Assembly: GCA_965112155.1 (NCBI GenBank)
Contig: OZ218099.1
Origin: Podarcis liolepis
Taxonomy: Eukaryota
DNA: 64,000 bases
Strand: one strand, 5' to 3'
Shown here: positions 761 to 63,670 of the stretch, piece after piece
Layout of the letters: every line of letters begins with the position of its first letter
How positions within the stretch are numbered: position 1 is the stretch's first letter
Position numbers and translations under genes: made by a program
The notes under the pieces: model-generated
The model's database searches: none
What the model was told of the DNA's origin: nothing
Seen by the model: the letters and a program-made list of their open reading frames with translations, nothing else

Positions 761-13467
<12,707 letters not shown>

Positions 13468-18239: not shown

Positions 18240-19570
18240 TTCCTCCGCATCCTCAGCCCGGTCCTGAACAAAACCCCAAGGATTTTAGGGATTCCCAATG
18301 GATAACGCGGCAACTCTGTCAAATCGAACAGTACCTGCAAGAGAGCCCCCCGCCCACACCAATATCCATTGTCTACTTCTATGGCGAGGGGGCCTTTCGG
18401 TTATTTCCCGGCCTTCCCCTTTAACGGTTTCGACCAATATAATAAATCCGGAGGCTCTTCTTGCGCACGAATATCTGAAAGACGCAACTGGCTGGCTGAG
18501 GCTTGAGGCTGCCTATTCCAGGGTTGAGTTGCGGCGTCGGAAACAGGCTTGCCCACCTGAACCCCGTTTCCCCGAGAGTAAGCCGTACTGAACTCAACAG
18601 GACTTACTTCTGAGGAGGCGTGGCAAGGACTGCGCTGCGAGCCCTCTAAAGCGCTGGTCCACAGACGAGCGCTATTGCGGGGCTGGCTCTGCCCTCTAGG
18701 GCGGGGAGCGTGTCGCTTGACGCGAGGCCTGGCGGAGGCGCCGGACCTGCTGCTCTGCCACAGAGAGATGACGCGAAGGCCCAGCAGCAGCAGCAGCAGC
18801 AGCAACCGCCGCACTGACGCCGAACCCACCGCCACGCGCGCGCTGCTCTTTTTCCCTCCGACAGGCGCCGCTGGCTCCTCCCCTTTAAGGAGCCGGGGCG
18901 GGGCCGCGCTTGCTGCAGGAACCTGCCCTTTAACAGCGCTCTCTCCTTTCCTCGCTGGTGCCGCTGCCTAAAGCCAGCTCGCCAGTCCTCGCCGGCCCCC
19001 GGAGGAGCCTCGGCCTCGCCATGGTGTCCTGGATCATCTCCCGGCTGGTGGTGTAAGCGCGCGGCGGCGGCGGGAGGAGGGGGACGACGGCGACGGGGAG
19101 GCCCTCCTCGCCCGTTGCTAGGCAACGGGAAGAAGATGGGGACGGGGGTCGTCTGGACGGGCGGCTCTCCCGAATCCCACCCCGCCCGGTGGTGCCCGCT
19201 GCGCCCAGCCCTTTTCTCGGCTCCTCCGCTCCTCTGCCTCTCGGGGGCTCCTGAGGCGGACGCCCACCCCCCCCCGCCCCTGCTGCCACCCCGCCCAGCT
19301 TAGCCCTGACCCTGACAGGTGACAAGAGCGAGCCCAGGGGCGTCGCCTGGACACCGCGGTCCTCCCCCCCCCCGCTTATTAAGCTGCTGTCCGTTTAACG
19401 GCCTCTGGGCGCCACCACCTGAGGGCTGCAGGTAGGGCGCCCAGCGCCTCTGACGCTCTGCCAGCCTTGCAGCCGCTGCGCTAGGCCTTGCTCTGCGCTG
19501 GCAGCGGAAGGGGGAAAGAGGGTGGATGGGCGGGCTAGCAGGGACCGGGGCTTCTCCGGCCTGGAGCCGA
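18240..19570 (+). promoter_or_regulatory. CpG island and promoter of REEP2
   Basis: GC- and CpG-rich block spanning exon 1; CCAAT boxes near 18359 and 18434, GC boxes (ggggcgggg near 18895), TGACG half-CREs, (CAG)n at 18782-18802; strong Kozak ctcgccATGG. Confidence 0.85.
19021..19052 (+). CDS. REEP2: REEP2 exon 1 coding part
   Basis: ATG at 19021; GT/gtaagc donor; 32 nt. Confidence 0.93.
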
Positions 19571-22500: not shown

Positions 22501-25500
22501 CATGGTCAGTTATTGAGGGGCTACACGGAGAGCAAAGAATCTTGACCATTGTCCTGCATGAGTTGTATGTACCCTAAAATACCTCATCACTTCTGTGTAG
22601 CTGTGCACTGAAAGGCAAATTTGTTAACAGCAAGCAAGCTGTTTTTTTACTTTGTCTGCCATTACTGATCATTTTGTTGAGGAACCCCTGATAATATGAG
22701 GAATGCTGAGGAACACAATTTGAAGGAAAGTACTTTAAAATAGCAGCTATACTTGGATTTGATGTCTCTGGCATTAGTTGGTATTAGCTGAAAATACATG
22801 TTAGTGTCAGTGGGAAAAGGCTGTTTGGATATCCTCAAGCTTTAGTAAGAATAATGCAAGAGCATCAAAAAATATTTTTCAAAAGATTAGTAATAGGGAT
22901 GCCAAATGTCTGGGCTTTCCTGGACACATCTGAGAATTGCTCAGAAAAATGGCATCCAGGCATATTTTTGCTGAATCGGCAAAATTCAGCAAAATTCAGG
23001 GAAAACCTGGACGTATGGTAAATTTGGGCTGTTTTTATTTTTTTTAATGTTCCTAAAAAAGGCTCAAAAACTCCGTCTGGATTTTCACTTTGGGGAATAT
23101 GGCATGGGCAACCCTAATTAATCAAGGGTAGACGGTATGAAATCTAAAAAGAAATATTGTTCACAACCATAATACAGAGTGAAGTGGCTAAAAATGGACA
23201 CTTTCAAATTTCATCGTAGTATAGACCTGCGAGTCACCCAGGTATTTGGAAGGAATTGCAAGTTCAAAGTTACTGTTTAAGAACAAGCTGCTTTTCAGGA
23301 GCCAATTTCAGTGGCAATATTTTTTTACATAATGCCTTGTAGTTAAGGAACAGCAGGGGGAGCTAGCTTCTCTTTCTAGCGTGGAACAGGCTCGTTAAAT
23401 TGTTCAGACAAAGATGAGGGCATAATCTTGGCTGCCAAAATATTCGTACTAGTATTAAACGTTACTGTAGCAAAATTGACATGCTGTGATAAAGGTCAAC
23501 TCCTCCTTTTTGGTGTGGGGATACATTGCATTGTTTATACTATTATCCTGGTAATCTGCTTTGATATTGGTAGTCCATCTTATAATTAGGTTGTTCTGGT
23601 CACCCCCAACTTTTTTTTGCTGAGAATTGTTGATTTGTGGGTAGCAACATTATTTACTCATGAAATGTATCTCTCAGTTTCCTGTGCTGTCTCTCATCCT
23701 GGAAATGGTTAAGACTTCCTAGTGAAGATCAGCGCAACCAAAGCAGGAGAACAAGGGATAGGAAAATCAGACATGAAAGACTGCCCCAGGTCACACATTG
23801 TGGTAAACTATAGTTAATAATTTACCATGAACATGCCAAGCAGGACTATTTTGCTCCTGCTGGCACACGTTTGGAGGAAACAAACCATTATATTTAGATG
23901 AGTGTTTAATCATGGTTTGTTCTATTCTATTAAACCATGATCAGTAAGCCATGAATAAACCTTAGTTACAAACTGTGGCTTGTTGGAGTTAAACAAAGCA
24001 CAATGTATGGTTCAGACACAATGGAAAGCTAGGAGCTGTTGTTTGTTTGTTTCTTGCTTGCATGAGTCAAGAAGAGTGAAGTAGGAGTAATACAATTCTG
24101 CATGATAAGCCATCACCATGATGTGCAAACAAGGTCTCTATTCTCAAGCACCAGTTGTAAATAGGATGTGCAAGGTTTTAATTCCTTTGTGAAGTTAGCA
24201 CAATCTGGTAAAGAGGGATGGTTGTTCAGAATCTGTTACAACTGCCCAGGTTCCTTGATGGTGTCAGTGCAGATGTTAGAGGAGAAATGTGCATTACACT
24301 GTGAACAGGACTGTTGTACTATGTATATCTTAGATCTGCACAAATTGTTCACAAAAGTGCAAAAGTTCCAGGTCATTTGAATTGACAAAAAGGCTGTACA
24401 CATGGCCAAGTAATGATAAGACGTAAGTGTGGTGAAAAGCTATAGGTGTCTGAAAATTATTGGCAGGCGAACCTTAAAGCAGAATTTCTGTTTTTGGAAC
24501 TTTCCTTGATGTCTCTGCTACTAGACACTGTTGAAGAGAGAGACCAACTGTTTGAAACCCAGAATTGCTGACATTTGGACATGGGTATAATTATAATGAA
24601 CTGCTTCAAAATTACAAGATTTGGCATCAGTCAGGAATTTGTTTTAAGTAGGTTGCAGCTTTCAAATGATATGTAATGGTGCTGGCTGTCTTGCAGGTCA
24701 AATGGATGATGTATTGGATTGTGTTTGCTTTCTTCACCACAGCAGAGACACTCACAGACATCATTCTCTCTTGGTAAGTACCCTGCCACACTTAGGAAGT
24801 AAGCGGGGGGACTACTGGATACTTCAATTCTTTTTCAGTTATCCATCTAGAATTGGTTGCTGTGAGGCAATTTGGTAAGGTATTCAGCTTCCCTGTAGTT
24901 ATCCTGTACTTGAGAAAAACAAACATGGTGTTGTTCAGGTTTATTATTTGAATGTTCTGTAGTAAACCATATACACAATGAGTGAAAGTTGTGGTTGTGT
25001 TGTTGGCAAAAATGTGTAGTTGTTCTGTTTGTCCTCCCAACCTAGAAAAAAAAGATATAGGGTCTTCTAGAGCAGGGGTCGGCAACCTAAGGCCCATGGG
25101 CTGGTAGCAGCCCACGAGGCTTGTCTAACCAGCCCATGGCGACCCCTACCGCCCTCCACCTTACCAGCGTGGTGCGGCGCAGGGACCGACTTCTGGGTTG
25201 ATGGCGCATGCGCACGGGTGCTCCTCTGGCCTGGATGTGCACCGGAAATAGCGTGTGCGCACTCGTGTGGGATGAAGAAGCCCCTGTGTGCATGCACACA
25301 CACTATTTCCGGTGCACTTCCGTGTCGGGAGAGCACCGGAAATAGCGTGTGTGTGCACAGGCAACTCCTCTGACCCGGAAGAGCGTGCGTGCGCACATGC
25401 TCCCGCCCATCCTCCGATTAAGGTTGCCAACCTCTGTTCTAGAGAGCAAAAAGTGAATGAAGAATGGGATTCTAGTTTTACGAATCTGATTTGTGGAGTG

Positions 25501-28500
25501 TGAGGGAGAGAAGCTGAAACCTAATGGAAACTATAGGGATAGTTGTAGAGTAATCTTTGAATATTGTGATTCTAGTTCTGATTAAATGTTAGGTTCTGAC
25601 ACTATTGCATGTCTTGTGCTTTGCTAACAAATTTCCAAAGATTTGTTCTCAACAATGTAAATCCCTGTTAGGCAAACATTGAGCTGTATTGTGCTGACTT
25701 ACTTGTCCTGACTAGAACTGAGGACAGAGATGATGTCCTAATCCTGCAGTGTCTGTGTTCAAAACTCCTAGCTGCCACTTTGTCCAGAAGTCTAAAATGA
25801 AGGGGGTAATTCCTGGGTTGAAAACATCAGTCATTCCCAGGCAGAGGGCCAGTCCTGATGGAACATCCCAATGTTACTCTCTTCCCAATGACTCTCTTCA
25901 CAAATACTTGAGTAGTGCAACTGCTAGGACATAACTCTGTTTGCAGGGTTGAGGATAACTTTGGATATAGACTTATCAAGGCTATGGCAAAAACTTAAAA
26001 AGAGACTTTAAGAAAATACATCCCGTAAAGGGTATCTGTGGCCTGTTCAATAGCTGGCCTTGTCATGTTGATTCTGTTCCATCTGTAGCTTCTCTCTTCT
26101 TCCTTCTGCTTATCTCATCTTTGCTTCTCTCTGGACTGTCAGTCTTTGTTCATCTCTAACCTGAGCTTGATTCTAGCTTTTCCATTTCTCTCAGGTTTCC
26201 CTTTTATTTCGAGCTGAAAATCGCATTTGTGATCTGGCTGCTCTCTCCTTACACCAAGGGCTCCAGCGTGCTCTACAGGAAGTTTGTTCACCCAACGCTC
26301 TCCAATAAGGAGAAGGTACTTCCTTCAGATTGCCCTACATATAAATCCTGGAAGTTTAGTGGCATGAGATCATGATAGATTGCAGAAAAGATACTGGTAT
26401 TAGCTCTGTCTGTGCTTGATATTAATCCTGTTTATGCCTGCTCGTAATAGATGTGTGGCAACTGCTGCTTTTACAGAGCAATAGTGAATTCCTAGTTTGT
26501 AACCTGATGAGAATTTGTTAGCTCTAACCTGAATAAAGTAGCTTTATTCATGGCTCCTAACTGTGAGCCAAAGGGCCATGCATGGAGAGTTTGAGGGACT
26601 CTTTGGAACAACATTTATTGCAGGGCAGGGGACTATAACCAGAAGAGAAACTACAAACTTTTTCTGTGTGTGCAGAACTGCAGTCCATTCATGCATGAGA
26701 CAATATGGATTCTGGCTAATGTTTTCAGCATTTGCTGCTGTATTAATTGATCCTTTATTAATTTTTGGGACCTTTACTCTTCGTAGTCTACACTGTGATT
26801 AGTGGTAGATGCATAATTACTCTCCTTAATCTCATGTAGTTCTAGCACAGGGCAAAGTATAGACATTGTCATTCATTTAGTTTGAGCCTGCAGATAAGGG
26901 GTGACAGTCTCAATCCACTTGTAAGTGCCTTATGCATTTTTACCTTAGGACAGAATTTTTTTTAGTAATATTTCAGCCTTCTGGGAGTAGCATTCACTGG
27001 AATATTGAGTTTTCTTCCTTTCAAACACTATATGTTAGTGCTGGGCAACACTTTTGATGTATTATAGTATTTTAATATTCTTTTGGAAGCCGCCCAGAGT
27101 GGCTGGGGAAGCCCAGCCAGATGGGCGGGGTATAAATAATAAATTAGTATTAGTATTATTATAATTATTATTACTATTATTATTATTACTTTGGGAAACT
27201 CAGAGCACTTGCTATACGATCCATTCTGCTGTGCTATCTAATATGTAATGTTTTCCTGGATTTCTGGATTTTATAGTTGGCTTCATGATGTTGGTGCAAG
27301 AAGGGGTTAGGATTTCAGGCAGAAGTGTCTTGAGATTCTGAAAAATTATGGATACGTGGTCATAATGCTAAAAAAGAAGAATGTACTGCACAAGGAAACA
27401 AGTTCCATGTACGGCTTTAAATCACATGAACTATATTTAATCCTTTTTCTGCTAATCCCTCAGTGTTGCAAAAGAGAGCTAGGCAGTCCCTAGGAATTAG
27501 CAGGCCAAAGGCTGGCTGGCTCTGTCTGAGGACTGCTTCTTACCATACTTTTTATAACGATATTAGTATATCTGCCTTGTGTCAGTTATGATAGCACATG
27601 TATGTTTAAATGATGACTGTTATTCACAAAATAAACAGGTCTGATAATTGTGAAATGAGGAAGCTAATTCTCACTGTATTTGATAGGGATCCCATGGATC
27701 CATGTAAGGCAAAGGTATGCTAACACAGACATTCTCCCAGTCTGCATTTCTTGAGAAGCACTGTACACCTCTATGTTTTGGGGGAGGGGGCACAAAGCAC
27801 TGTATTCAATCACAATGTCTCTATGCATACATTTAGTTAAGCTTCCTCTAGCACTGACTGACTTCTCAGACTGGTGCTGCTTTTTCATGCTGCTTCACAT
27901 TCCTTCTTGAAATTCAGACTTCTGTATTTCTAAAGAGATCCAGAGCATGAGCATAGCAGGATTTCAAAGTTTTATATTTTCAACTAAATGTTAAATCTGT
28001 TCCAAGCATGGGACTGACTAGGACAGTCAGTATCACACATTGGAAAATGTGGCTATGGTGAATTTCCCACTAAATAACACTACGCATAAGGACATTTGAA
28101 GAGCCTGCTGGATCAGGCCAATGGGCCATCTAGTCTAACATCCTGTTCTCATAGTGACTAACAAGATGTCTGTGGGAAACTGAAGCAGGGGCTGAAGAAA
28201 AGAGCACTCGCCTCTTGGAGTTTCCAGCAACTTTACTGCCTCTTAACTGTGGAGGCAGAACATAGCCATCATGGCTAGTAGACATTGTTAACTTTATCCT
28301 CCATAAATTTAAAATCCACTCAACTTGGTGGCCATCACTGCCTGCAGTGGGAGTGAGTAACATGGTTTCACTAGGCACTGTGTGAATTAGTACTTTCTTT
28401 TATCTGTCCTGAATCTTCCAACATTCAGCTTCACTGGATATGAGTTCTAGTGTTATGAAAGAGGGGAAAAAATTTTCTCTAGCCACTTTCTCTATGGCAT

Positions 28501-31500
28501 GCATAACTTTAAATTTCTAACGTGTCACCTCTTTCTTGCCTTTTCTCGAAACTAAAAAGTTCCAAAAGCTGCAACCTTTGTTTCTCTTTCCCCTTGATCA
28601 TCCACCTGCTGGAGTCAACAATGACTTTTGCACTCGGCTTGCTAGGTCATCATAGTTGTGATACAGAATGCAAAATCAAGAAAGGATTCAGTTGCTGAGT
28701 ATAGAATACCACAAGTGGATATTTTTGTCATGTGTGTCTGAAGTGTGGAAGGTCTTCTTGTAGAAGAGATTTAAGAAAATTGATCCCAGGAAGTAGCTTT
28801 TTTTCTGTGGCAAAGTTTTGGTATATGTGTAATTTGTTTTCTCCTTGATGCTGCTAATGTTGAGGAAGACTGAAATTGGCACAACGCTGAATTTGGCACA
28901 ACGAAACACAATACAACAATTACATGAGCCTTGATGTTCATTTCTCATTTAAGAACCAAGGGTACATGCTTCCCATTTTTCTCCTGGGGATCTGATTTCA
29001 CAATAGCAGGACACAGGGTTTTTTTTTGCTGTGAAGAACCTGTGTCTCTTCTCTTGAGTGGCTAATCATTCAAGTTCTCACTGGATATTAGTATGCTCTT
29101 GTGCTCTAAAAAAAAGGAGTATGAGCCAAGTGGTCATGGTATATTGTATTGGCCTGAATATAAGCCACACTTTCCCCCCAAATTCCAACAGTGAAAAGTT
29201 AAAGTGAGGCTTATTTTCGTGACCTCAAGCTGCCAGCAAAGCGGTGCAGCTCCCCCCAGGAAGCGGCCCGGGTATTGTCTCTCTGCCCCCCCCCCCAATT
29301 TTAAAGGGGCGGCTTATATTCGGGCCAATACAGTATCTGTATTCTGATAAATAGGAGAGGTCACACTCTCAATACTTCTAACAAACTGATGAGGGTCTTG
29401 ATTCCACCCAGTCTTGGAAGAGATCCCCCCACTGTTGTTAAAACTAAGAATAATAGTCCTGAAATTTCTCTTATAGTTAATTGGTTAATCTTTCATAAAA
29501 TTTGGCTATTTTAGAATCAGACTAGACATGACAAGTGCAGCTATTTTTGCTTATTGACCTGCTAGCTATGTTTATGCCTACAGGTGAACGGTGAGTTCCA
29601 AAGTCCATACAATTCAATTGTTTCTGTAGATAGAGTGATTTGATAGCAGCCACCTTTAACAATAACTAGCCCATGCATTTAGAGTCTATCAGGGCTACAT
29701 TCTCTCCAGGTTGGATAGACAAAACATTCTCTCCATTTCAATAGACTAAAATGCAAATCAATCAGTGACAAAATCTTCACCAGACTCATAATACAGATGA
29801 GTTTAGCCCGGCCTCTGATGTATGTAAGTCATTGAACCAGTGGTGTAAGAATTTCTTCCTGTGTGTTTTTTGGAATGGCAGTGGAGGAAAAATTTCCATT
29901 TTATAAGGTGATTAATATCAGTGAATGAATGTCAACATAGCATTAGACAGACTTAGAAGTTTCCAAGTTTTTAGTTTTGTTTACAAAATGCATATAAAAT
30001 AAACATGCTAAATTAGATAAATTTTCTGTATGTCCTAGAAAATTTCCAATGCAAACAAGGTTTTCTATTGCTAACTACCAAAATTGCATAGGAAATTTTC
30101 CAAAAAGCTTTCCAGAAAAAAATCCAGAAATGTCCTATTTAACATTTACTGGAAGTCAACATGTTGACATTGATCTTGACATTGAAGTTAACATTTACTG
30201 TTATGTCATGATACTTTAAAACTGGCCTTTAGAATTATGCTTCATTGCTGCCAGAACTAGTTTGTGAAATTCCTCTCTTCTGTTCCATAAAGACAAGTTA
30301 CTGCTTGATCTTAGTCTTACTTAAAGATATATTCTTCCATGTGAATAATTGTTTAAGCATGTTTTTCTTCCCCTCTTACTTGGGTTGCCTGTGTTAAGAT
30401 GTGATGGGTACTTCTAAGTACATGATTCTCAAAATGAGAGGTGTTGGTTTTTCTGTTACCTTGTCCTGCTGAACTATTTTTGTACTCTGTAATCTAGTGT
30501 ATTGTTAATTAGTGCGGCTGCATTTGTTCTGTTGTGTGTATAGGCATTGATGATCCATAGGTGATTCTTTTTCTCATTCCACCATGCAAGCTGTCGATGG
30601 ATAGTTTATAACCTCTGGAAAGATTTACTTAGTCATTAGAGAAAGTTTGAAAGGTTTTATAATTAACAAAATTAAAACATTATGATGACTTTGAGAACTT
30701 CTGTTCTGTTTGGTTGTTCAAACCCTATGCACTTGGACCTTCTTGCCTTATACCTAGTTGGACTATAAGTCCATCTAGCCAAGAATTGTGTACACTGACT
30801 AGCAGCCTTCACCAGGGGTTCAGACAGGCAACATTCCCAGCCCTTCCTGGAGGTACTGAGAATTAAATCCTAAGCAATTCAGTATTCAAAGCAGATGCTC
30901 TACTACTGAGCTTCAGCCCTTCCCCAAAAAACTTCCTCTTAAAAGCTTTTGTGTGAGTATGTATCATTCTTGAGGGTTATAGCTATGCAAATCATTTTTT
31001 AATGTGGCCTTCCCCACCAATTAAATCCTAGGAAATCGATGAGTATATCAGCCAGGCCCGTGACAAGAGTTATGAAACTATGATGCGAGTTGGCAAGCGA
31101 GGATTAAATTTGGCAGCCAATGCAGCAGTTACTGCAGCTGCAAAGGTAACTCCTTATATACCTATGTGCCATATCAACCCTGTTCCCTTCTGTTGGACTT
31201 TTGGTGTCATAACTCTATCCCACTTCCCCACCTCCATGCTGTCTGCTAAGCTGTTCTTTCAAGTTAGACATGAGACAAACTCATCTGCAGCTTGCCATCT
31301 GATTGGATTTTATTCTGACCCTGATCTGATTTTAGGATGTATTTTAACTGATTGCTTGATTTTATGTTAATGTGCTATACATTTGATGTTAGCCACTCTG
31401 AGCCCGGTTTTGGCTGGGGAGGGGGGGTATAAATAATTTTGTTGTTGTTGTTGTTGTTGTTCTTACCAGACCCAAGCTGTGTCCCCCTCATCTAACTGCT

Positions 31501-34500
31501 GTCGTGTGTTCTTTTCCATTGGAAGCTGTTTTAGCATGTCCTCTGATGTGTTCTGAATGGTTCAACTCATGTGAATAGTTACAACTAGAAATTGTGTCTT
31601 AAAGGGCCAAGGAGTTTTGTCTGAAAAACTACGGAGTTTCAGCATGCAGGACTTGACTTTGATTCGGGATGATGACACTGTGCATTTACGGAGCCCTGAG
31701 CCACGCATGCGTACTTCTGCTACTGGTCATCTTGAAACTGTTGATGATTCAGGTTAACAGCAATCCATTCATATTATTTAATGAGGGCAGATGTCTAAGA
31801 GTTGTGGGCTTGGGGCAAATATTGAAGCGTCTAACTTCAGTGGTAGTTAGCTGTGTTTATGTTTTGAACTTGGAGTTCATGCACACCTATTTTTCATGCA
31901 GTACTCACAATTGCAATGGACATGCTGCTTAAAGAAAGAATTCACATTTTCCCAGCAGCAAGATATTATAGCTTGGGCCACGCTACTCATGACAGCAGCA
32001 GGCCCATATTTTTAAATGTGGGTATTTTCCAGTAATATATAAAGCAAGGCGTGGAAGCATAAAAGGAGGTTTCTGTGTTCACATACACAAAACAACTTCT
32101 TTTATCTTTATCTTCTATACCTCTCTGTAATTTTCATTCAACCAGTGATCCTAGCTAGAAGATAGACTGGGGGAGGGGAGAGGATGTGCGCAAAGGAAGG
32201 GTTTGATCTCCTCTTCACCTGGGCACCCCTTCTTCACTTTACACTGCACACCACCAATCCACACTGGTCTGGATTGGGGGAGGAACCAAACTCCTGTTAC
32301 TTTTGTTAAAAGGGGGGTGGGGAGGTGAATCCCAATAAAGTGATTCAAAGAGTCATTTAAAGACGCTGAGTCTTTTGTCACCTTGACAGTTTGATTCTCC
32401 ACAACTTTCCATAGACACCTGAAGGCTCCCCTTTTGGGGAAGTTTTTAATGTCTGATGTTTCACTGTGTTCTGTTATATTCTGTTGGAAGCTGCCCACAG
32501 TGGCTGGGTCAACCCAGTCAGATGGGTGGGGCACGTGTGTGTGTGTGTGTAATAAATTATTAGTCGCCTTAGTACAGTGGTGCCCCGCAAGACGAATGCC
32601 TCGCAAGACAGAAAACCTGCTAGACGAAAGGGTTTTTCGTTTTTGAGCTGCTTCGCAAGACGATTTTCCCTATGGGCTTGCTTTGCAAGACGAAAACGTC
32701 TTGCGAGTGTTCCGATTTTTTTTCGCTCCCCCCCCCTTTTCTATGCCGCTAAGCCGCTAATAGCCTTTTAGCCGCTAATCCGCTAAGCCTTTAATAGCTG
32801 CTAAACCGCTAATAGCGCTAATCCGCTAAGCCGCTAATAGGGTTGCTTCGCAAGACGAAAAAACCGCTAGACGAAGAGACTCGCAGAACGGATTAATTTC
32901 GTCTTGCGAGGCACCACTGTATTAGTATTATTTATTTTCTCCTTTCCTTCAATAACCTTGGTATCAGAGATGGCATTTTCGTTTTCTGCTCCTCCTCCAT
33001 ATTAAAAAATAAGGGGCATCTCTGTTTTTGGTTTTCTCCTCAGGTGCATCCTGTTATTCCTCATCGGAAGAGATGACTCTGTCTCAAAGACATAATGGGG
33101 CCCAGTCTGATGCCAGAACAGACCCATCAGATGACGATACAGGAGACAAAGTTCCCAAACGGACCCAGAGCCTTAAAGCTCCTAAGAAAGTGACAAAGAC
33201 TGAGGTGAGCTGGATGTAATTGTTTGGAAAGCTTGCAGCTGGATCCTGCCCCATGTACAACTTGTGTGCTTCAGCTTGGCACATAATCCCTTTTAATAGC
33301 TGCCCCTCCCTTGCAAGTGTGCTTTGCTTGCCTGCCAGATATCTTTCACTAGATTTTGAAGTATTGGACAGGATTCAACTAATGGGTCCCATCAGCAGAA
33401 GCCTGCACAAGAACTTGTACAAAAGGGCTTTCTCCCCTGCATCTCCCAAAATTGGCTCGGAGGGGATCAGGAGAACACCCAGAACTGCTCACGAGAAGGA
33501 AAGAGGGATCATTCTGTTTGGCAGGCTGAAATGTTTGCAGTAACAGAACAATCAGAAGAGTGTGATGTTGAATTCCTCCTGTTGTTTCACATTCCTATTC
33601 TGTCAATAATTTAAATGCCTCTTTAGTAAGAATTTAAGGCATTACTAAGGGCTGAAAGTAGATGTGATGGCAGTAGCAACTTGTTTGTTCATTTGCACCA
33701 TTGCTATGCCAAGCAGAGAGTGGATAGTGTCTCATTTTTAAATGAGAATGTGCATGACCAGCTGAATACTTCTTCATTCATTTGCTTACCTTCCCATGCT
33801 CTATTGTCCCCACTCCCCTCTTGCAGTACTGGAAGTTGGCTGAGCTTTGAGAAAGGGCTTGGGGTGTTGGAACATGGGAAGGAAAGACAGAGGAGGGGAG
33901 ATTCAATTTCCTTCTCTTATGTACTCCCTTTTGATGTTAAAGTTGGACTCCCCTGCTTCATTTGTGAATGCATAGGCACATGAATGAATAAACATGAATG
34001 TGCTACTGCCACATCTTATTTGGCACTCAGGATGCATCCAGTTTTATGAGTTTTTGCATGATCTGCTGCTGACATTAGGGACACAGCCTGCAGACATTCC
34101 ATCAGCTGTTTTTGTTTGGGCTCCACTTCTTGATTTTTCCAGTGCCGAAATATATTATATAGTGTGGTTTTATGTTGCAAACAACTGGCTCAAATAAGAT
34201 TTTCTGTGTGCGCAGTTTGTGCACATGTCCACGCATCCAGCTTTTAATCTTAGATTTTTCGTAGGAATTCCACTGTATCAGGTCCACGCCACACCTTGAA
34301 GAAATGTTTCCATGCTGTGGTTTTCTGGCCTCTCCCTTCAATAATTGCTCCCTTGTCCTTCAGTAACCTTTTCTGCTCTGGGTATATACACAACTATATG
34401 GGGATATCAATTTTCATTTTGTTTGTAAAAATCAAAATTAAATTACTATTTTTAGGGGGAAAGGCCCAACCAAAAATGCACTAATGAGCTTCCATATATA

Positions 34501-45149: not shown

Positions 45150-45825
45150 TTCGTAGTGAGTAAGATTGTCTTCCATAAACACGGTTTTAACAGTGAGTCC
45201 GTAAGTGACTGTGGAGGCCAATTCTGGATCCACACGTCCTTCCACAGCGGGGACATAGGTTTCTGGGCGGGAGTTGATCACGGTGTGAATTTGCCAAGCG
45301 TGCCTTCCTCTTAGCACATTTCTCCCTTGCGTCCTGAGTTCGAGTGTCTTCAAAGCCCATGACACCTTTGGTAAAGGCTGTTCTCCAACTGGAGTGCTTG
45401 CAGGCCAGTGTTTCCCAGCTGTCAGTGTTTATACTACATTTTAAAAGATTTGCCTTGAGACAGTCTTTAAACCTGTATTGTTGACCACCAGCATTACGCT
45501 TTCCATTTTTAAGTTTGGAATAGAGTAGTTGCTTTGGAAGACAATCATCAGGCATCCGCACAACATGACCAGTCCAACAAAGTTGATGTTGAAGAATCAT
45601 TGCTTCAACACTGGTGATCTTTGCTTCTTTCAGTCCACTGGCATTAGTTCGCCTGTCTTCCCAAGTGAAGTGTGAAATTTTTCAGAGACACCGTTGATGG
45701 AATCTTTCGAGGAAGTGGTCCATGTTTCACAAGTTTACAGCAAGGTTGGTAGTACAATGGCTTTGTAAACAAGCATTTTCAAACACTCTGAACTTCAATC
45801 GGGAGAAAGCTGCACTTGCAGCTTA
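45150..45825 (-). mobile_element. RTE-clade LINE 3' fragment (ORF C-terminus with C2H2 finger)
   Basis: WTGHVVRMPDDCLPKQLLYS...CPRCGRTCGSRIGLHSHLRTH, typical of the RTE-clade ORF end. Confidence 0.85.
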
Positions 45826-47230: not shown

Positions 47231-47835
47231 TGTTATAAGAAAAAAACTGCTCTTTTCCCCTTATGGGGTATCCAAGCGCCCATATAGAGTCCTCTTTTTA
47301 GGTTCTCTATCGGGAGGAGAAAATAACAGAGGCCAACCAGAGAATATTGAGAAGCAAGGCAGCTAGTAAGCTTGATCTTTATTAAAGCTGCTGCAACATG
47401 GTACTTCACAACCACATGCAGGAGAGAGGAGGGACCCCGAACAATGGCGTGCAAGCCCTTATATAGACGTTTTAAATTGCCCACCTTCAAACTCCAGACC
47501 ACCCCCAGAAACATCATACACACATCACAGAAGAGGCGGTCTAAAACAGAATCCTGAGTGTGTTGTTTATCTCCTGTCCGGCAAGTTATCCGATTGCATT
47601 ATCTGGGTTTTGGCCATTCTTTTGTTATTATAACTACTTAATTCCTGAATCTAGGTCACAGGTCACAGGCTCACCCTGTTCATATCTTGAATGTGCTCTT
47701 AAGGCAGGATTTGTGAGGAAAGAGACATTGGGGAGGTTTCCCACTTTGACCTTGCATAGAAATATTTGAGGTCCATTTGTTCAGGACTTTTTTTGTGGGG
47801 TTTCAGACATGTGGTTTATATATACAGTTATGAAC

Positions 47836-47895
<60 letters not shown>

Positions 47896-52410: not shown

Positions 52411-52665
52411 TTGGAGAACAGCCTTTACCAAAGGTGTCATGGGCTTTGAAGACACTCGAACACAGGACGCAAGGGAGAAACATGCTAAGAGGAAGGCACA
52501 CTTGGCAAATCCACACCGTGATCAACTCCTGCCCGGAAACCAATGTCCCCACTGTGGAAGGACGTGTGGATCCAGAATTGGCCTCCACAGTCACTTATGG
52601 ACTCACTGTTAAAACCATGTTTATGGAAGACAATCTTACTCGGCTACAAGAGATCGCCAAAGAAG
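52411..52665 (+). mobile_element. RTE-clade LINE 3' fragment (same family as 45150-45825)
   Basis: Near-identical reverse complement of 45150-45392, including the zinc-finger-coding part and 3'UTR. Confidence 0.85.
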
Positions 52666-53140: not shown

Positions 53141-53387
53141 CCTCCTAAGCCAACCTAGCAGTTCGAAAGCACGTCAAAGTACAAGTAGATAAATAGGTAC
53201 CGCTCCGGCGGGAAGGTAAACAGCATTTCCGCGTGCTGCTCTGGTTCGCCAGAAGTGGCTTAGTCCTGCTGGCCACATGACCCAGAAGCTGTATGCCGGC
53301 TCCCTCAGCCAATAAAGCGAGATGAGCGCCGCAACCCCAGAGTTGGCCATGACTGGACCTAATGGTCAGGGGTCCCTTTACCTTTAC
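53141..53387 (+). mobile_element. Sauria SINE (5'-truncated)
   Basis: gccaacctagcagttcgaaagcac...agataaataggtacc...gagatgagcgccgcaaccccagag...ggggtccctttacctttac with the (ACCTTT)n tail. Confidence 0.85.
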
Positions 53388-54163: not shown

Positions 54164-54867
54164 TGTTATCAGAATTTTAAGGTCATATATTTTTTTTAAA
54201 ATGTTCATAACTGTATATATAAACCACATGTCTGAAACCCCATAGACAAGGTCCTGAACAAATTGACCTCAAATATTTCTCTGCAAGGTCAAAGCCAGAA
54301 ACGTCCCCGTTGTCTCTTTCCTCACAAATCCTGTCCTCACAAATCCTGCCTTAAGGGCACATTCAAGATACGAACAGGGTGAGCCTGTGACCTGTGACCT
54401 AGATTCAGGAATTAAGTACAGTAGTTATAATAACAAAAGAGTAGCCAAAACCCAGATAATGCAATCAGATAACTTGCCAGACAGGAGATAAACAACGCGC
54501 TCAGATTTCTGTTATAGACCGCCTTTTCTGTGATGTAGGTATGATGTATCTGGGGTGGTGGTCTTGGGCTACTACACCCCTTCTTTGATGTCTGTATGAT
54601 GTTTCTGGGGGTGGTCTGGAGTTTGAGGATGGGCAATTCCAAAAGTCTATATAAGAGCGGGCACACCTTTGTTCTGGGTCCTCCTCCTGCGTGTGGGGGA
54701 GCATCCTGTTGCAACAGTTAATAAAGATCAGGCTTACTAGCTGCTTTGCTTCACAATATTCTCTGGTTGGTCTCTGTTATTTTTTCCTACTGATAGAGAA
54801 GCTACAAAAGGACTCTATATCTTGGGTACCCCATGAGGGGAAAGGAGCAGTTTTATCACTTATAACA
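54164..54867 (+). mobile_element. Solo LTR (704 bp)
   Basis: TGTTAT...ATAACA termini; 5-bp TSD GGTAC (54159-54163 and 54868-54872); TATA box (ctatataag near 54647) and AATAAA near 54720. Confidence 0.9.
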
Positions 54868-56740
54868 GGTACCTTGACTGTAAATCTTTCTGCTGAGGGA
54901 AGAGAAGGCAGCATCTCAGCTTAAGAGAAAAGCTCTTCCTGTAGATTCATTTTGGATCAGTTGGGAAGCCACTACCAGCCCCCCAAAACAAGCTGGCCAA
55001 TTTTCAAAACATTAACTTCCCCTCTGTTAGCCATAGAAAGCTGTTTAGCAGGCAAGCTAAGTAACTGCAATATTTATAGATTCAATTTCCACATCAATTT
55101 CCCTGATAGGCAAATGCAGGCACAACGTCACTCCTATTAGGAATGCAGGCGGCAAACAGACTGTTGCTATGGCGATTTTTGCCATCACAGCAAAGGCAGC
55201 CCGTGTGCACTGCTTGTGTATGAAGCTTTCTGGCAAAGCAGCTAGTCTTAATTAATCTGAAAAGGCGACACATTTAATAAATGGCAGGAGCAGTGATGGT
55301 GTTGGGAGGGAAGTATACTGAGTCAAGCAAACTTCTCTTTTGAAAAGGAATTGACCTTGCTTGGAGCCCAGAATTTCTAGGAATGGACAGGCCTTGGACA
55401 AACTCTGTGTACCAAATGTTGAAAACAGTTACATATCCGAGCTTGCCAAGGGGAATCTGTGAGTGGCTCTTTACAAGATAGAGTAATTGAAATGTGTTTC
55501 TTCATTCTTTATTTATTCATTCACAGTACTTCTATGCCACCATACCAATGAGGTTCTCTGAGTGGCAAACTTAATTTTAAACATTCAGTATAAAACAGTA
55601 AAAAAATAATCCAGTTCCAGTCAATATCTTTGTGTGGGGCTAGCTGCACCGTGAGAGAGAAAGGAGGCATGCAAACCAACCAAATCAACCTTTTCTTCTT
55701 ATGGCCACCAAATGGATATCTCCCTGGCCAGGGGACCAACTCCTGGGGGCTGAGCCCTTTTGGGGCTCAATATTTTTGCGGGGCAGGAGCCCCAATGTTC
55801 AAAAGGGGCAGAGAAGTCCAAACATGGAGCTGAGCGCAGCACAACTTCTCCTTCTCTTCCTCTTCCTGCCATGGTAAGAAAGGAGCAGGTAAGCAGCTCC
55901 TGGCCGTGGCAGCAGGAGGAGGAAGAGCAGCCGACCATTGAAGCCATGCTGCCCCCCTGATTGGCTCCTCCCAATGTCCTGATATCACATGCATGACATT
56001 GTCCCGCCCCTTCTCCCTCAGAAGTTGCCGCCTCTGTCTCTGGCATGCACCCACACCCACTCCTAAGGGATGTTTCCAGCTTTCTAGATAACTGTTCCAG
56101 CTCTTCTAGCTGTTAGATTCACCAGTTCCAGCTTTTCCAGCTAACTGCTCTCTTTTACATCCTGACTTATGTATCATATTTTCACTCCCCTTCCCACTCA
56201 TTAGCCAATCGGTAGAGTCCTGGATAAGTTTATATTTCTCCTCAATTGCCATATTCCGAGGATGACTCTTTGACCTTCCAATGCAAAACTTCCTCCAGTG
56301 AGCATTTCTGACTGTGGTACAAAATAGAACTTACCGTATGTGCATTTTTAACCTTCCTGTGAACATTTGACCCTCCTGCACATTATATCATCCTGTGCTG
56401 AATAACCTTTAAAGCAAAGTCAACAATTTCATAAGAACCAAGCAGAATGCAAAACAGTGGAACAATTTCATTCCTGAACACCATATTTTGGACTAGCTGG
56501 AATTTCTGAAGCACTTTCAAATACATATACAGTGTATTGCCTTCATCAAAATGGGGTACTTGAACAAGGATTATGGTAGCCAAGTTATCTCTGTCTGGGT
56601 AGAGTCACAGTTGGTTTGTAAGCCAAAGCTGACAAAAAGTCATCTGTGTCTCCAGTGACAACACTGGGTCAATTAGTACTATTCTCTATTTCACAGTGAT
56701 GTCCAATGAGCCTCACCAACTTGGGAGAAATCCAAAAACA

Positions 56741-57040
56741 TGTCAGTGTTTGTAAAAAGCAAAAAAAAGAAGGAAAGGGTTCTGACCTCCCTTTATCTTC
56801 TCAGTCTCCTTGTCGGCACAAAAAGAGTCCACGGGAATATCCTTGCAGAGTTTTATTAAAAGTCTTTGTGCAAAACACAACTGAATAACTATACACACCA
56901 GCACCAACCAACCCAAACACCAGCCACACCAACAAACTAACATCTCTCACTTATATATATACAGATTGATGCAGACCGCTGAGTCATGCTGACCCAGCTT
57001 TATTCGCATTAAAGAAACAGCGGCCATTTTAGCCGTGACA
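56741..57040 (-). repeat. Copia 3' LTR
   Basis: 300 bp, identical by eye to 61471-61770; minus-strand AATAAA at 56852-56857. Confidence 0.96.
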
Positions 57041-57055
57041 CCCCTTCTGTTTCTT
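57041..57055 (-). other. Polypurine tract of the copia element
   Basis: Minus-strand AAGAAACAGAAGGGG abutting the 3' LTR. Confidence 0.85.
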
Positions 57056-57094
57056 AAATGCGAAAAACCCCAACAGAAACAATACATACATACA

Positions 57095-60000
57095 TTATAT
57101 ACATAAACCCAGTTTTGTCATCAATTCATTATGGCATGTTGCTGGCAAAGGCTTGGTAAACAAATCAGCAATATTATCTTGTGACTGACAATACTCCAGT
57201 TTGATTACCCCATTCTGTACACAATCTCTCACATTCGCATGACGGATAGCAATATGTTTTGATGCGGATTTCATTATTTCCGAGCCCGCTAATGCAATGC
57301 ACGATTGGCTAGCTTCATACACTTGGATAGGCAAATCTACTTTACAATCTAGATCTTTTAGTATCTGTATAAACCATATGATTTCATTGCATGCTAGCGA
57401 CAGGCTCCCATATTCTGCCTCACAGGATGAGGTCGCAACAAATCCTTGTTTCTTTGACCTCCATGCAATTATGGAATTAGCAAACATCATAACCATTCCA
57501 CTTGTAGATTTTCTAGTAGCTACACAGCTTCCCCAGTCCGCATCAACAAATACTTCTAGTTTTTCATCTTGTGTACTAGATATCTTTAAACATACATTTA
57601 ATGTCCCCTTTAGATATCTGATAAGCCTTTTCAAAGCACACCAATCGGCAGTACTGGGTTTAGATACATGTTGGCTCAGAACATTTGTAGCACATGCAAT
57701 GTCTGGCCTTGACCACTGGCTTAAATACAACAGTGATCCTATTTTTTGAGTGATACAACTCAGGCTGATCAAATTCATCATCACACACTGTCTTTGGGAA
57801 ATCTGGTGTCATGGGAGTCTGAACTGGCTTGCAGTTTTCCATGCCAAACTGCTCTATTAAATGAAGAATTTTCTCTTTCTGGCTCAATAGGAAGCTTCCA
57901 TCTGCTTCCTGCCTTACTTCTACTCCCAAGTAATTGCTTACAGGCCCCAAGGCTTTAAGCTTAAACCTCTTTTCCAGTTGACTTGTGAGCTTCTGGATCT
58001 CATCTGTGGAACTCCCTCCTACAAGCAAATCATCAACAAAGACTAAGAGCATTAGATATTTGTTGCCTGTCCCCTTGGTGTACAAGCATGGATCAGCCAC
58101 ACTCCTTTTAAAACCAAGTTTTACAAGGGCTTCATTTAAACACTGGTTCCAACACCTTCCACTTTGTTTGAGACCGTAAACAGCCTTTCTCAAACGCCAG
58201 ACTGCACCATTCTCCTCTTCAACCCCAGGGGGTTGTCTCATTAACACTTCATGGTCTAAATTTGCATGCAGATATGCAGCATCAACATCAAAATGGTGCA
58301 CTGCTAGTTGTCTTACAGCAGCAATGGAAAGCATTAAACGAAAAGTTTCACTCTTTACCGTGGGAGAAAACACTTCATCATAACTCTCCCCTTTAATTTG
58401 AGTGAACCCTCTGGCTACTAATCTGGCTCGAAAACGTGGTTCCCCAGATGCAAGGGTTTTCCTTTTGTAAACCCACTTGCATGACACCACTCTGCCACCA
58501 GGTGGCGGCATTATGACCTCAAACACTTTGTTACGTTTAAAAGAGTCCATTTCTTCTTTCATAGCTTGTTCCCACAAAGCACGTTCCCCAGGGGGTAAGT
58601 CTAAGACTTCATTATAACTTTGTGGTTCCACACAACTCACATTGCATACTCTCACTCCTCCTAGGGTCAAACGCTGAGGAGGTACACCCTTGTTTGAACG
58701 CTGGGAGCGCCTAGGCACAACTACTTCTTCTTCCCCCCTTATCTCTGGCTCTTCTTCCTCTTCCTCTAGAGAAGTATTATCTATTGCCACATCTTTTGGG
58801 GAAATCTGTGCCTCCTCCTCATTCTGCTCCTGTGTTGCCAATGGCTGAGAAGAAGCCTCTTCTCTTACTTGCAGGGGCAGTAGGCAATCAGGGTTGGCAT
58901 GGATCGCAGTCCATCTGTCCTGGTCAGCGAAGTCTGCGCTTCGTGACAGAACCACGCGTCCTGGGCGTAAATTGAAACGCCACCCTTTGCCATAGGACTG
59001 GTATCCCACAAACCGCAGTTTCTGCGCTCTAGCGCCCCCTTTCTGGCGCTGAGCTTTGGGAATGTTTACATGTGCCCAAGAACCCCAATTATGGAGCATT
59101 GTCCACTCTGGTTCTTTCCCAAACAATACACGATATGGAATATCTTTTATAGAGCTAGACCAGGTTCTATTAATCAAAAAGTTCGCGGTCAGAAAAGCCT
59201 CGCCCCACAGCCTATGGTTGTGGCCCAATCCTGCATCCACTAGCAGGCAGTCCTTTACTGACTGTATTACAGCCCCACGTCTTTCACACAGACCATTTTC
59301 AGCAGGGCTATAAGGGTTAGTCAAACGGTGAGTGATCCCCTTACGTCGCAACCATGCCCCAAATTGTTTGTTCAGAAATTCTCCGCCCCTATCTGTTTGC
59401 AGCTGCACAACAGGCCGAGCGAAGAGCTTTTCAGCTTGGGCAACCCATTCTCTGAATGTGGGGAAACACTCAGATTTCTGCTTTAACAAAAACAGCCAAC
59501 TAAAACGTGATTTGTCATCTATTACCAGAAAAGCATATCTGGCGCCCCCTTCAGTCTTCTGTGGAAAAGGGCCTATCACGTCACAATGGACAAGTTCTAA
59601 AACCTCTTTAGATACTCTGTCGCTTTTAGAAGCCACAGGCTTCCTCTTAGATTTGGCCATTTTACATACATTGCAGTCTAGGAAACAGTTACAGCTATTT
59701 ACTTTTAGGTTCTTGCATACCTTTTGCATTTCTGAAAGCACACGGAAATTGGCGTGACCCAGTTTTCTGTGCAGTTGATGTACACACCCCTTATGAACTG
59801 GCAAATTATCCTGAACCACCTGGGCTGCTTTAACAGGCTTGTCCTGCATTACATATAACCCATTTTCCAACTTTGCATGGCCACATACCTGAGTTCCATT
59901 CTTTATCAGACAGCCATCCTGCGTGAACTTAACACTATACCCTGCATTAATCAAACAGCTTACAGACAGTAAACAATAGTCCAAACTGCTGACAAACAGA

Positions 60001-61064
60001 GTCTCTGGTAGAGTAGTGTTCAAGCACTGCAGGAAACATGTTCCCTGGCCATCAATCTTGCTTCTACGACCATCAGCAAGATAAATTGAGTCTTTTCCAT
60101 CAGCTGGCTTCTCCAGGGTCTTAAAGTCCTCCCGACTATTGCAGATAATCCTGCTGCTGCCAGAGTCCAGCAACCATGTTCCTCGAGGTATCTTTCTCTC
60201 CTCCCAAGAAAATGCAGACACAAACTGAGCAGAACGCGTGTTCTTCTTCCCTGAAGAGAACCCCTTCTGCTTACGTTTCTGCGTTGATTGCTGTCTCTGC
60301 TCCACGTCGTCTCCTGGAAGTCCTGCCCTGCATTGACGTTGGAGATGCCCGGGTTGGTTGCATCTATAGCATCTCCTCACCGCCATGGCCAAGTCCAAAC
60401 CTTGGTGTTGCTCCATTGGCAGATTCTGCTGCTGGCCCCCTCGGCTGTAACTCCTCCGCTCTTGGAGTTCAGCCTGTCTATCTGACCTTCTTTCTGCTTC
60501 TTCGGTCAATCTGCCAACCACATACTCAAGGGTCAGATCTCGGGGACGCATACTCTCCATGCTGTTAATCACAGGCAACCAGCTTTCAGGCAAACTTGAA
60601 AGGATAATGTATGTTTGGTCAGTCTCATCATAATGCTTACCTCTCTGCTGTAGTTGAAGAAACAGAGATTTCAGCGTTTGAAGATGAGTTGCCAAACTCT
60701 CACCTTCTTTCATAACAGTCCTGAACAGCCTTCTGGTCAGAGAAATGATAGTTCCAGCAGTTTCTCTGACATGCATTGCCCTTAATAAATTCCAGCACTC
60801 AAACGCTGTGCTGGCATTTGCTATATGCAATAACTGAGAGTTGCTCAAACACAGCATAATTTGGGCACGGGCCCTTTCATCTAGCCGTTTTTTCTCAGCA
60901 GTGTCCCGTCTCAAAACCTCAGTTTCAACACAGTCCCGTAGTCCATCTCTCCTTAACAACTGCTGCATTTTAATTGACCAACTCAGCCAGTTGCTTTCTG
61001 AGAGAAGTTCAAAAGGGATGCCTCCCCCAATATTTACAACTTGGGAAGACTGGAAATCTGCCAT
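57095..61064 (-). CDS. Copia gag-pol polyprotein (about 1322 aa if the single +1 frameshift at 57742-57747 is removed)
   Basis: First ATG at 61064 in strong Kozak context (gagATGG). Motifs: gag NWLSWSIKM, CCHC knuckle CYRCNQPGHLQRQC, protease LLDSGSS, integrase HRKLGH...CNVC and D(HCDVIGP)-D(TDRGGEF)-E(NGLCER), GKGW, RT ARLVARGFTQ / YGLKQS / FVDD, RNase H DADWG / EAEY / ADLFTK. Split between ORF-track entries 57660..61214 and 57095..57784. Confidence 0.92.
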
Positions 61065-61456
61065 CTCTGCTGGTGCTTGCTGAGCCCCTTCTGTGGGGTC
61101 TCCAGCAATCTCTCCTGACTCTCTCTTTAGAGTCCAACTGGATGGTCCTGGCTGGCACTCACCGGCTTCTAGCTGCTGCCTCTGTTGACCCTCAGGTCCC
61201 GCCTGGCTCTGCAACTGGTGTAGCCGCTCTGTGAGTCGCCTACTGTGGTCCTCTAGCAGTTCAAACTGTTCCAGTAGCCGATGCTGAGTGCTTTCCTGAT
61301 CCTCAGATCCTAGCCGCTCCAGCGTCGCTGCAGACAGTTACAGCTTGCCACCAACTGCTCCAACGCACAGCCACTGTCTCCGTACACCACCAGGACTCAC
61401 CAGCTCCTTGCTGAAATGCTGTTAGTCGTTTTGCACTCTGCACATGCTCAGAAACA

Positions 61457-61470
61457 CTGGGCCCATAACC
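61457..61470 (-). other. Primer-binding site complementary to the anticodon stem-loop of initiator tRNA-Met
   Basis: Minus-strand GGTTATGGGCCCAG directly after the 5' LTR is the reverse complement of tRNAiMet CTGGGCCCATAACC. Confidence 0.92.
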
Positions 61471-61770
61471 TGTCAGTGTTTGTAAAAAGCAAAAAAAAGA
61501 AGGAAAGGGTTCTGACCTCCCTTTATCTTCTCAGTCTCCTTGTCGGCACAAAAAGAGTCCACGGGAATATCCTTGCAGAGTTTTATTAAAAGTCTTTGTG
61601 CAAAACACAACTGAATAACTATACACACCAGCACCAACCAACCCAAACACCAGCCACACCAACAAACTAACATCTCTCACTTATATATATACAGATTGAT
61701 GCAGACCGCTGAGTCATGCTGACCCAGCTTTATTCGCATTAAAGAAACAGCGGCCATTTTAGCCGTGACA
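61471..61770 (-). repeat. Copia 5' LTR (promoter)
   Basis: Minus-strand TATATAA (61681-61687), ATGACTCAGC (61708-61717), AAAATGGCCG (61751-61760), AATAAA (61582-61587). Confidence 0.96.
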
Positions 61771-62908
61771 AAACACTCCTGCAAATGATCTCAGTGACTG
61801 AGCAGGGATATTTAGGTGGGCAGTAAGGTAGACTGGACCTAAGTTGTTCTAGGCTTTGCAAATCAGTACATAGACCTGGAACCTGGCTCAGTAGTAGATG
61901 GGCATTGGCCTAATATTCATGACATCCTTCCCATGCCATTTTAGTTGTGTGAATTAGTAGTGACTGACACTTCATGGTGTCTCACCTCCTAACAGACTCC
62001 ATTCTGATGGTCCAAGGAACAATGCACAATGGATGTAGTACCAAGGGAGATGTCTCCCCTGAGTATCCTACACAGTGTAGCCAAAGCCATCTCTAAGGAA
62101 GATCTATATCTTTCCGAAAAGATGCCTAAAAAGAAAAAGAGAGAGCAATAATTCCACCAAATACTGAACAAGTGTTGATGCCTTTGTTGATAGGCGATGA
62201 ACTGGTAGTCTTCGGTACAGTGTACTGTACCTTGTTTTCTCATGTGTTCTGCTTTAAGGCACATGAGATGTTCATATAGCCCAAATTATTTTGACTAGTC
62301 TGTAGGAAGTGTTAGATTTGGAAGATTAGTATTGATCTAGTTTGTTCCCCAGCAACACTGCAGTTGCAGCAATTCTATGAATAGGAAAGAAAGCAAAGGT
62401 CATATCGTGTGATTGTTTGACTCTAAATATAAGATCTTACCCTTCATGCCTTTGAGTTCTCATTTTTGTTGCCAATACAATGATACCTTCAAAAGACGAA
62501 TGCACTATGGTGATTTGTAGGTTGATCTGTCACATGAGCTGTTTGTTTCATGCTCTATGTACAGCATTTATACTGCTATCTTGTTGAGCTAGTAAGCAGT
62601 TTCTATTTTGGTCTCCTGGTCTCTTGACATCACCATCTCTTAGCCTTTCGCTTCCTGTGTAACTCTCTCACAATGAGATTATTTTGCTAATCCCCCAGAT
62701 AGCAGCATATTCCCCGCCCTTTATTCCCTAAAACTTTCCAATGTACCTTGAGTGCAGATCCTGAAATCAAGGAGATTCCGGCCAGCCACAGGATCTGCTT
62801 CCCCCCACTCCTTTGCTTTGCCTTTCTGTGCTCCAAATTAGCATATATATTCCATTAATTGAATTCCAAATTGATTTCCATTCTTTTTTAAGCATTACAT
62901 AAAAGAAT

Positions 62909-62993: not shown

Positions 62994-63088
62994 ACATAAA
63001 AGAATAAACAGTTTATTCTGAACGCAACACTTTGCTGCATTTATCTTCACTTGCCAGGGCTGGTGTGTGCCCATCGGAGAGATGGACA

Positions 63089-63670
63089 CAATAGGAGTAT
63101 AGCATCTAGATCAAGGGAAGTAATAGTGCCACTGTATTCTGCTCTGGTCAGACCTCACCTGGAGTACTGTGTCCAGTTCTGGGCACCACAGTTCAAGAAG
63201 GACACTGACAAACTGGAATGTGTCCAGAGGATGGCAACCAAAATGGTCAAAGTCCTGGAAACGATGCCTTATGAGGAACGGCTAAGGGAGCTGGGCATGT
63301 TTAGCCTGGAGAAGAGGAGGTTAAGGGGTGATATGATAGCCATGTTCAAATATATAAAAGGATGTCACATAGAGGAGGGAGAAAGGTTGTTTTCTGCTGC
63401 TCCAGAGAAGCGGACACGGAGCAATGGATCCAAACTACAAGAAAGAAGATTCCACCTAAACATTAGGAAGAACTTCCTGACAGTAAGAGCTGTTCGACAG
63501 TGGAATTTGCTGCCAAGGAGTGTGATGGAGTCTCCTTCTTTGGAGGTCTTTAAGCAGAGGCTTGACAACCATATGTCAGGAGTGCTCTGATGGTGTTTCC
63601 TGCTTGGCAGGGGGTTGGACTCGATGGCCCTTGTGGTCTCTTCCAACTCTATGATTCTATGATTCTATGA
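63089..63670 (+). mobile_element. Young CR1 LINE, 5'-truncated (ORF2 C-terminus, 3'UTR and octamer tail)
   Basis: Uninterrupted peptide [28 protein letters not shown]...RLRGDMI...[15 protein letters not shown]; (ATTCTATG)n tail. Confidence 0.93.

Follow-up and report, generated by a model that had tools for sequence, protein, structure and literature searches.

Ty1/copia retrotransposons (Pseudoviridae) are long terminal repeat (LTR) elements of ~5 kb in which gag, protease (PR), integrase (IN), reverse transcriptase (RT) and RNase H (RH) are arranged between a primer binding site (PBS) and a polypurine tract (PPT), with no env gene and a 5-bp target-site duplication (TSD). A full-length Ty1/copia element of 5,030 bp that is alike in all of these features is located on the minus strand at 56741-61770 of a 64,000-nt stretch of Podarcis liolepis DNA (assembly GCA_965112155.1, contig OZ218099.1). 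The whole stretch is referred to here as the window, and all coordinates are those of the window. The element is best read as a young insertion of a Ty1/copia family resident in lacertids, most likely from the Mtanga clade that expanded in lizards and snakes, and this reading is given a probability of about 0.82.

Copia elements have been surveyed in metazoan genomes by Klai et al. 2025 (PMC11889832). The accessible text of that study reports paired-LTR copia elements counted with LTRharvest in 263 genomes. Copia was found in 23 of 24 squamates, which hold 66% of the 49,920 metazoan copies. The counts are 1,004 for Podarcis muralis, where the copies fall into 44 clusters, and 304 for Zootoca. 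Each of the 750 amniote elements that the study classified is Mtanga, and copia is reported to be absent from birds, mammals, turtles, and crocodilians. An earlier preliminary description of the window had regarded intact copia elements as scarce in vertebrates, which does not hold for squamates, the richest metazoan group for paired-LTR copia in this survey; its statement that birds and mammals essentially lack them agrees with the survey. Mtanga-like copia has been described as especially abundant in the tuatara genome (accessible text of PMC7116210), and 8 Mtanga-like copies were reported from Xenopus (accessible text of PMC4131045). In the corn snake, amelanism was tied to a segregating 5.8-kb copia insertion in OCA2, which is similar to Anolis Copia-6 and features gag, IN, RT, and RNase H (accessible text of PMC4657000).

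The window copy resembles the Mtanga elements of squamates and tuatara in its squamate host and in the grouping of its RT with other lizard copia families. This grouping, together with the assignment of all 750 amniote elements to Mtanga, suggests that the element probably belongs to the Mtanga clade. Its family could be among the 44 P. muralis clusters or separate from them. A search of the freely accessible literature, with the repeat databases Repbase and Dfam outside its scope, returned one paper, on a phrynosomatid genome, and found no description of the family. The accessible text of a study of horizontal transfer in vertebrates (PMC7070016) makes no mention of copia, squamate, lepidosaur or reptile.

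Relatives of the Element in Wall Lizards

All named family members found are from Podarcis. The gag search returned 1 match of 4,264 candidates, P0316, whose cluster comprises two proteins of P. lilfordi and one of P. raffonei. The two P. lilfordi proteins, CAI5797299.1 and CAI5778970.1, give identities of 93% over 539 aa and 92% over 624 aa to the window copy, and the P. raffonei protein XP_053255536.1 is 94% identical over 317 aa. These three are truncated predicted proteins in which the identity spans the end of gag, PR, and IN, and they differ mutually by ~10%. The major Podarcis clades split ~16.7-9.8 Mya (million years ago), with much introgression (accessible text of PMC8114931). The close copies in P. 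lilfordi and P. raffonei, taken with these split dates, argue for a multi-copy family with a past in wall lizards. The family would have been resident there long enough for decayed copies to accumulate in two species, a pattern that would fit vertical inheritance with repeated bursts.

Searches with the RT retrieved more distant relatives. Full-length proteins gave 487 matches of 2,597 candidates, and the best match among the best 120 of the 487 was a P. lilfordi polyprotein with 50% identity. Among the best 150 of 103,691 matches in a search of representatives, the Logan fragment P0132 is 96-97% identical to the window copy and its C-terminus features an internal deletion relative to that copy. 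A third search, with short RTs, gave 44 matches of 243 candidates. Neither ORF1 nor ORF2, the two open reading frames (ORFs) of the element, has an exact-sequence entry in the protein collection. The ESM Atlas returned generic copia clusters, mostly from plants, fungi, and oomycetes, with no information on host range. One of the squamate proteins, P0169, is a Rhineura floridana RefSeq protein named ATG10 isoform X1 that carries copia gag, RT, and RNase H regions; it is probably an annotation fusion with a copia copy.

RT Phylogeny and Origin of the Family

Two RT trees were calculated. A quick FastTree phylogeny was made from 313 RT BLAST matches filtered to at least 200 residues, plus two short close ones, which gave 293 rows including the window copy. 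The window copy is found in a 12-row clade (support 98) with Podarcis-linked rows. An IQ-TREE phylogeny was calculated from a 41-row subset that was picked after viewing the quick tree, with a bootstrap that is not fully settled. In this tree the window copy is in an 11-row clade (98/94) with two other Podarcis-linked families, Rhineura is the sister of the clade (82/96), and no named invertebrate is inside it. Among these 11 rows plus Rhineura, 12 in all, there are two named squamates, two rows with named P. lilfordi proteins as cluster partners at 90%, and the window copy itself. Both trees suggest that the RT of the window copy groups with other lizard copia families.

The preliminary description had considered it plausible that the family was acquired recently by horizontal transfer from an invertebrate. 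This origin is not supported by the identities or by the trees and is highly improbable. The Mtanga clade was defined from Anopheles and is present in terrestrial invertebrates, and an ancient horizontal entry into Sarcopterygii is raised by Klai et al. as an untested alternative (accessible text of PMC11889832). Named Cordylochernes and Trichuris RTs do share a wider 31-row clade (87/93) with the lizard rows, but joining the window family to the Cordylochernes set was rejected by the approximately unbiased (AU) test with p 4.9e-6, and joining it to four named insect rows was rejected with p 0.002. The tested groups were chosen after viewing the tree, and the Trichuris row was outside the test. 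The sampling of invertebrates in the databases is incomplete and few rows carry names; among the matches with names, invertebrate RTs reach at most 42% identity, compared with 92-94% protein identity for the Podarcis copies. Additionally, the decayed copies in two Podarcis species, which come from clades that separated on the dates given above with much introgression, speak against a recent arrival.

Horizontal movement between squamates would apply if the host were not a lacertid or if the family were patchy among lizards. If the host were a distant squamate, vertical descent would not leave an identity as high as 92-94% to the Podarcis copies. This explanation is very unlikely, since the only named family members are from Podarcis and a short interspersed element (SINE) at 53148-53385 of the window presumably resembles the lacertid Sauria SINE/Squam1.

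Several points weigh against a family resident in lacertids and are considered together here. That the host is a lacertid is itself inferred, from the Podarcis matches and the presumed SINE resemblance. The nearest RT found beyond the window copy's own family, P0275, has only 59% identity. The FastTree phylogeny places Rhineura outside the clade of the window copy, which it joins only at the next, 77-row level. Of the 12 rows counted in the IQ-TREE phylogeny, the remaining seven show no clustering with any named protein. The sequences of the three Podarcis family members stop ahead of the RT or where it begins, and they were left out of the tree.

Age of the Insertion

The two LTRs of the element (56741-57040 and 61471-61770) do not differ at any of their 300 bases, which gives a 95% upper bound of 0.0099 on their divergence. 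With a rate of 8e-10 per site per year (accessible text of PMC8735750), the age of the insertion is at most ~6 Myr (million years), and the identity of the LTRs sets only this upper bound. The CpG observed/expected ratio is 0.40 in the element and 0.26-0.28 in the flanks. In 259 shared columns the window copy features 3 private amino-acid differences, compared with 12, 9, and 11 in the three Podarcis copies, and the pattern is star-like. The insertion is young because its LTRs show no differences, its CpG ratio is higher, and its private changes are few. The preliminary description had called it very recent; its youth is borne out, but a bound of <0.0099, or ~6 Myr, makes "very recent" an overstatement.

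A copy that is older than it appears, with LTRs made identical by gene conversion or by assembly collapse of the two repeats, has very little probability. The two lesions described below and the 3 private changes accumulate more readily with time, and the absence of differences in 300 bases still permits ~22 internal changes at the 95% bound. An older copy is opposed by a number of private changes that is three to four times lower than in the Podarcis copies, by the CpG ratio, and by a TSD that is still exact.

Structure of the Element

The features of the element are listed below from its 5' side to its 3' side, that is, in descending coordinates.

61771..61775, no strand: right copy of the target-site duplication, AAACA, by sequence match with the left copy
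61471..61770, minus: 5' LTR, 300 bp, TG...CA, by LTR-LTR comparison
Inside the 5' LTR, minus: TATA-like run near 61691 and AATAAA at 61734 and 61587, with putative promoter and poly(A) roles
61457..61470, minus: PBS of the half-tRNA type, its 14 nt complementary to initiator tRNA-Met within the anticodon arm (internal segment)
61065..61456, minus: GC-rich leader of ~0.4 kb, open in the gag frame over the 91 codons that precede the gag ATG
57660..61064, minus: ORF1 from the first in-frame ATG, gag-PR-IN-RT, out of register past RT
60327..60908, minus: gag, with Pfam matches to Retrotran_gag_2 at 60477-60908 (E 7e-27) and a CCHC zinc knuckle at 60327-60374 (E 2e-4)
59937..60176, minus: aspartic protease (Pol_BBD) by Pfam, catalytic Asp present, as in 48/48 homologues
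58911..59861, minus: integrase by Pfam, with HHCC (GAG-pre-integrase), DDE core, and SH3-like domain, 7/7 key residues present
57807..58532, minus: reverse transcriptase (RVT_2) by Pfam (E 8e-74), three catalytic Asp present
57742..57747, minus: frame change between RT and RNase H, in a T6 run
57095..57741, minus: RNase H region in the second frame, aligning with the C-terminus of P0270 at 46% identity in 213 aa (E 4e-65), 3/4 catalytic carboxylates present
57311..57313, minus: position of the third RNase H carboxylate, non-acidic by alignment to homologues
57041..57055, minus: PPT, purines at 14/15 positions, abutting the 3' LTR
56741..57040, minus: 3' LTR, same sequence as the 5' LTR, by LTR-LTR comparison
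56736..56740, no strand: left copy of the target-site duplication, AAACA, by sequence match with the right copy

The Pfam matches follow the copia order, with gag, zinc knuckle, protease-type beta-barrel, GAG-pre-integrase, integrase core, SH3, and RVT_2 domains. The LTRs end in TG...CA. The AAACA duplication is 5 bp with no extension to 6, and a chance 5-mer match at the local composition has a probability of 0.0011. The PBS adjoins the 5' LTR directly. What the preliminary description had seen is confirmed: it had given a Ty1/copia element with a gag-PR-IN-RT-RH layout and no env at these coordinates, identical 300-bp LTRs, an exact AAACA duplication, a PBS and a PPT. No env-like ORF is present, the last stop being only 54 bases away from the 3' LTR, and membership of the Sirevirus group or of endogenous retroviruses was rejected since this space leaves no room for env. 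BLASTN found neither another copy nor a solo LTR in the rest of the window.

The RNase H and leader frames gave no Pfam match. The name RNase H for the second-frame region rests on its position and motifs; a PDB sequence search with this part returned a single match at chance level. The open frame in the leader is absent from the relatives compared. Its 91 codons upstream of the gag ATG contain no stop in the gag frame and are coiled-coil-like, and 531 of 20,000 shuffles were equally open. Two upstream ATGs, one of which is within the PBS, share the gag frame, and two stops cut both off. This open frame may be what is left of an N-terminal extension that has decayed. The window copy differs from typical Ty1/copia elements in this 0.4-kb leader, with its long open frame ahead of gag, in the shift of frame that separates RT from RNase H, and in the changed catalytic column of RNase H.

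Frame Change and RNase H Substitution

The pol region of the window copy is spread over two frames, with stop-to-stop ORFs of 1225 aa and 237 aa. Similarity to P0270, a relative that is read in a single frame, stops at ORF1 residue 1197 (P0270 residue 1104) and restarts at ORF2 residue 23 (P0270 residue 1106). The frame change was therefore placed in the T6 run at 57742-57747, which is one of only three homopolymers of at least 6 bases in the internal region. Programmed frameshifting at this junction was considered and rejected, because both P0270 and a further relative, P0273, read across it in one frame.

The catalytic residues of PR, IN, and RT all agree with those of the homologues. In the RNase H region the catalytic residue of the third carboxylate column is kept in 191 of 195 aligned homologues (out of 212 RNase H matches) and is non-acidic in the window copy. 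The window copy departs from conserved columns that are kept in 191/195, 165/194, and 137/192 homologues, and these departures cluster in the C-terminal half, at 57236-57313 on the minus strand. Judging from their codons, two of the departures look like more than one base change. The carboxylate substitution lies outside any homopolymer and would be explained as a sequencing error less easily than the frame change.

An autonomous copy has an uninterrupted gag-pol and all catalytic residues. The window copy as assembled has an interrupted gag-pol and lacks one RNase H carboxylate, and is predicted to yield no functional RT-RNase H. Although full-length, the assembled copy is not intact because of the frame change and the non-acidic RNase H column; the intactness that had been assumed for it earlier is not borne out.

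Homopolymers are the usual site of long-read errors. The position of the frame change in a six-base homopolymer, as well as the presence of every PR, IN, and RT catalytic residue, would suit an intact and autonomous element in which a sequencing error produced the frame change and the RNase H variant is functional. That the element is intact is most improbable in view of the catalytic substitution, which no homopolymer accounts for and which affects a column conserved in nearly all homologues. The single-frame reading of P0270 and P0273 at the junction also makes programmed frameshifting there unlikely.

The lesions of the window copy contrast with its upstream region: gag-PR-IN has 3 private changes in 259 columns, yet several conserved RNase H columns are changed. 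It is conceivable, although unlikely, that the RNase H change is fixed across the family, which would then be a copia lineage that is still mobile in lacertids with its own RNase H inactive or rewired and that relies on RNase H supplied by the host or by a helper family. The protein searches found no sibling sequence that covers RNase H. Under the reading favoured here, a young insertion of a resident family, the window copy may have been mobilised in trans by an intact sibling, it may have been damaged after insertion, or its frame change may be a homopolymer error.

Primer Binding Site and Replication

The 14 nt of the PBS match the tRNA-Met cDNA shown in the accessible text of PMC6508675 at an internal position and not at its 3' end. 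Additionally, 13 of the 14 bases are found in the anti-iMet probe given in the accessible text of bioRxiv 2024.01.30.575011. Half-tRNA priming has been described for Hemivirus and some plant lineages (PMC8515867; accessible text of PMC6317226). The match to an internal tRNA-Met stretch suggests half-tRNA priming of the Hemivirus type, and the element shares with Hemivirus-type Ty1/copia elements a PBS complementary to an internal segment of initiator tRNA-Met.

From what is known of the family (PMC8515867), the parent copy would have been transcribed from its own 5' LTR and translated as a single gag-pol polyprotein. The RNA would then have been packaged, with reverse transcription primed by the 5' half of initiator tRNA-Met at the PBS (accessible text of PMC6317226) and from the PPT. 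Integration would have taken place through a 5-bp staggered cut.

Genomic Context and Neighbouring Repeats

Plus-strand exon motif matches are located from 19021 to ~33200 (33205) and at 2386-4423. The exons at 19021-33205 (+) are taken to be those of REEP2 and the exons at 2386-4423 (+) those of a KDM3B-like gene. A GC-rich island is located at ~18-20 kb of the window. No EGR1-like motif was found in the window, and therefore the element is probably intergenic, ~23 kb beyond the last located exon of the presumed REEP2. The window copy has no known effect, unlike the corn snake OCA2 insertion, which is intronic and causes a phenotype. Neither a tRNA gene nor an Rfam family at gathering score was found in the window.

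Several other repeats are present. The SINE at 53148-53385 (-) is partial and is presumably of the Sauria SINE/Squam1-like type in its lacertid form. Squam1 is described as specific to squamates in the accessible text of PMC10058329. An inverted pair at 45158-45388 and 52411-52641 is 95% identical over 231 bases and features the 3' end of a long interspersed element (LINE) with a C2H2-like motif. This LINE 3' end is presumably of the RTE type. Inverted copies of a ~0.65-kb repeat at 47231-47853 and 54185-54867 are 78% identical. An open frame of 196 codons at 63000-63590 (+) has no Pfam match and presumably resembles the 3' part of a CR1 LINE. Pfam gave nothing in two ORFs near the element. 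A feature resembling a miniature inverted-repeat transposable element (MITE) at 32570-32920 has inverted ends and an internal GC-rich tandem array.

Implications

The element is an ordinary find, a datable example of the known copia expansion in squamates, and not evidence of a jump from an invertebrate. Paired-LTR copia elements are present in hundreds to thousands of copies in lizard and snake genomes, and the corn snake insertion is a precedent for young polymorphic copia in reptiles. The copy would matter more if synonymous divergence (dS) showed transfer between lizard lineages, or if the RNase H change proved to be family-wide in a mobile lineage. If the insertion segregates, it may serve as a presence/absence marker among wall-lizard populations.

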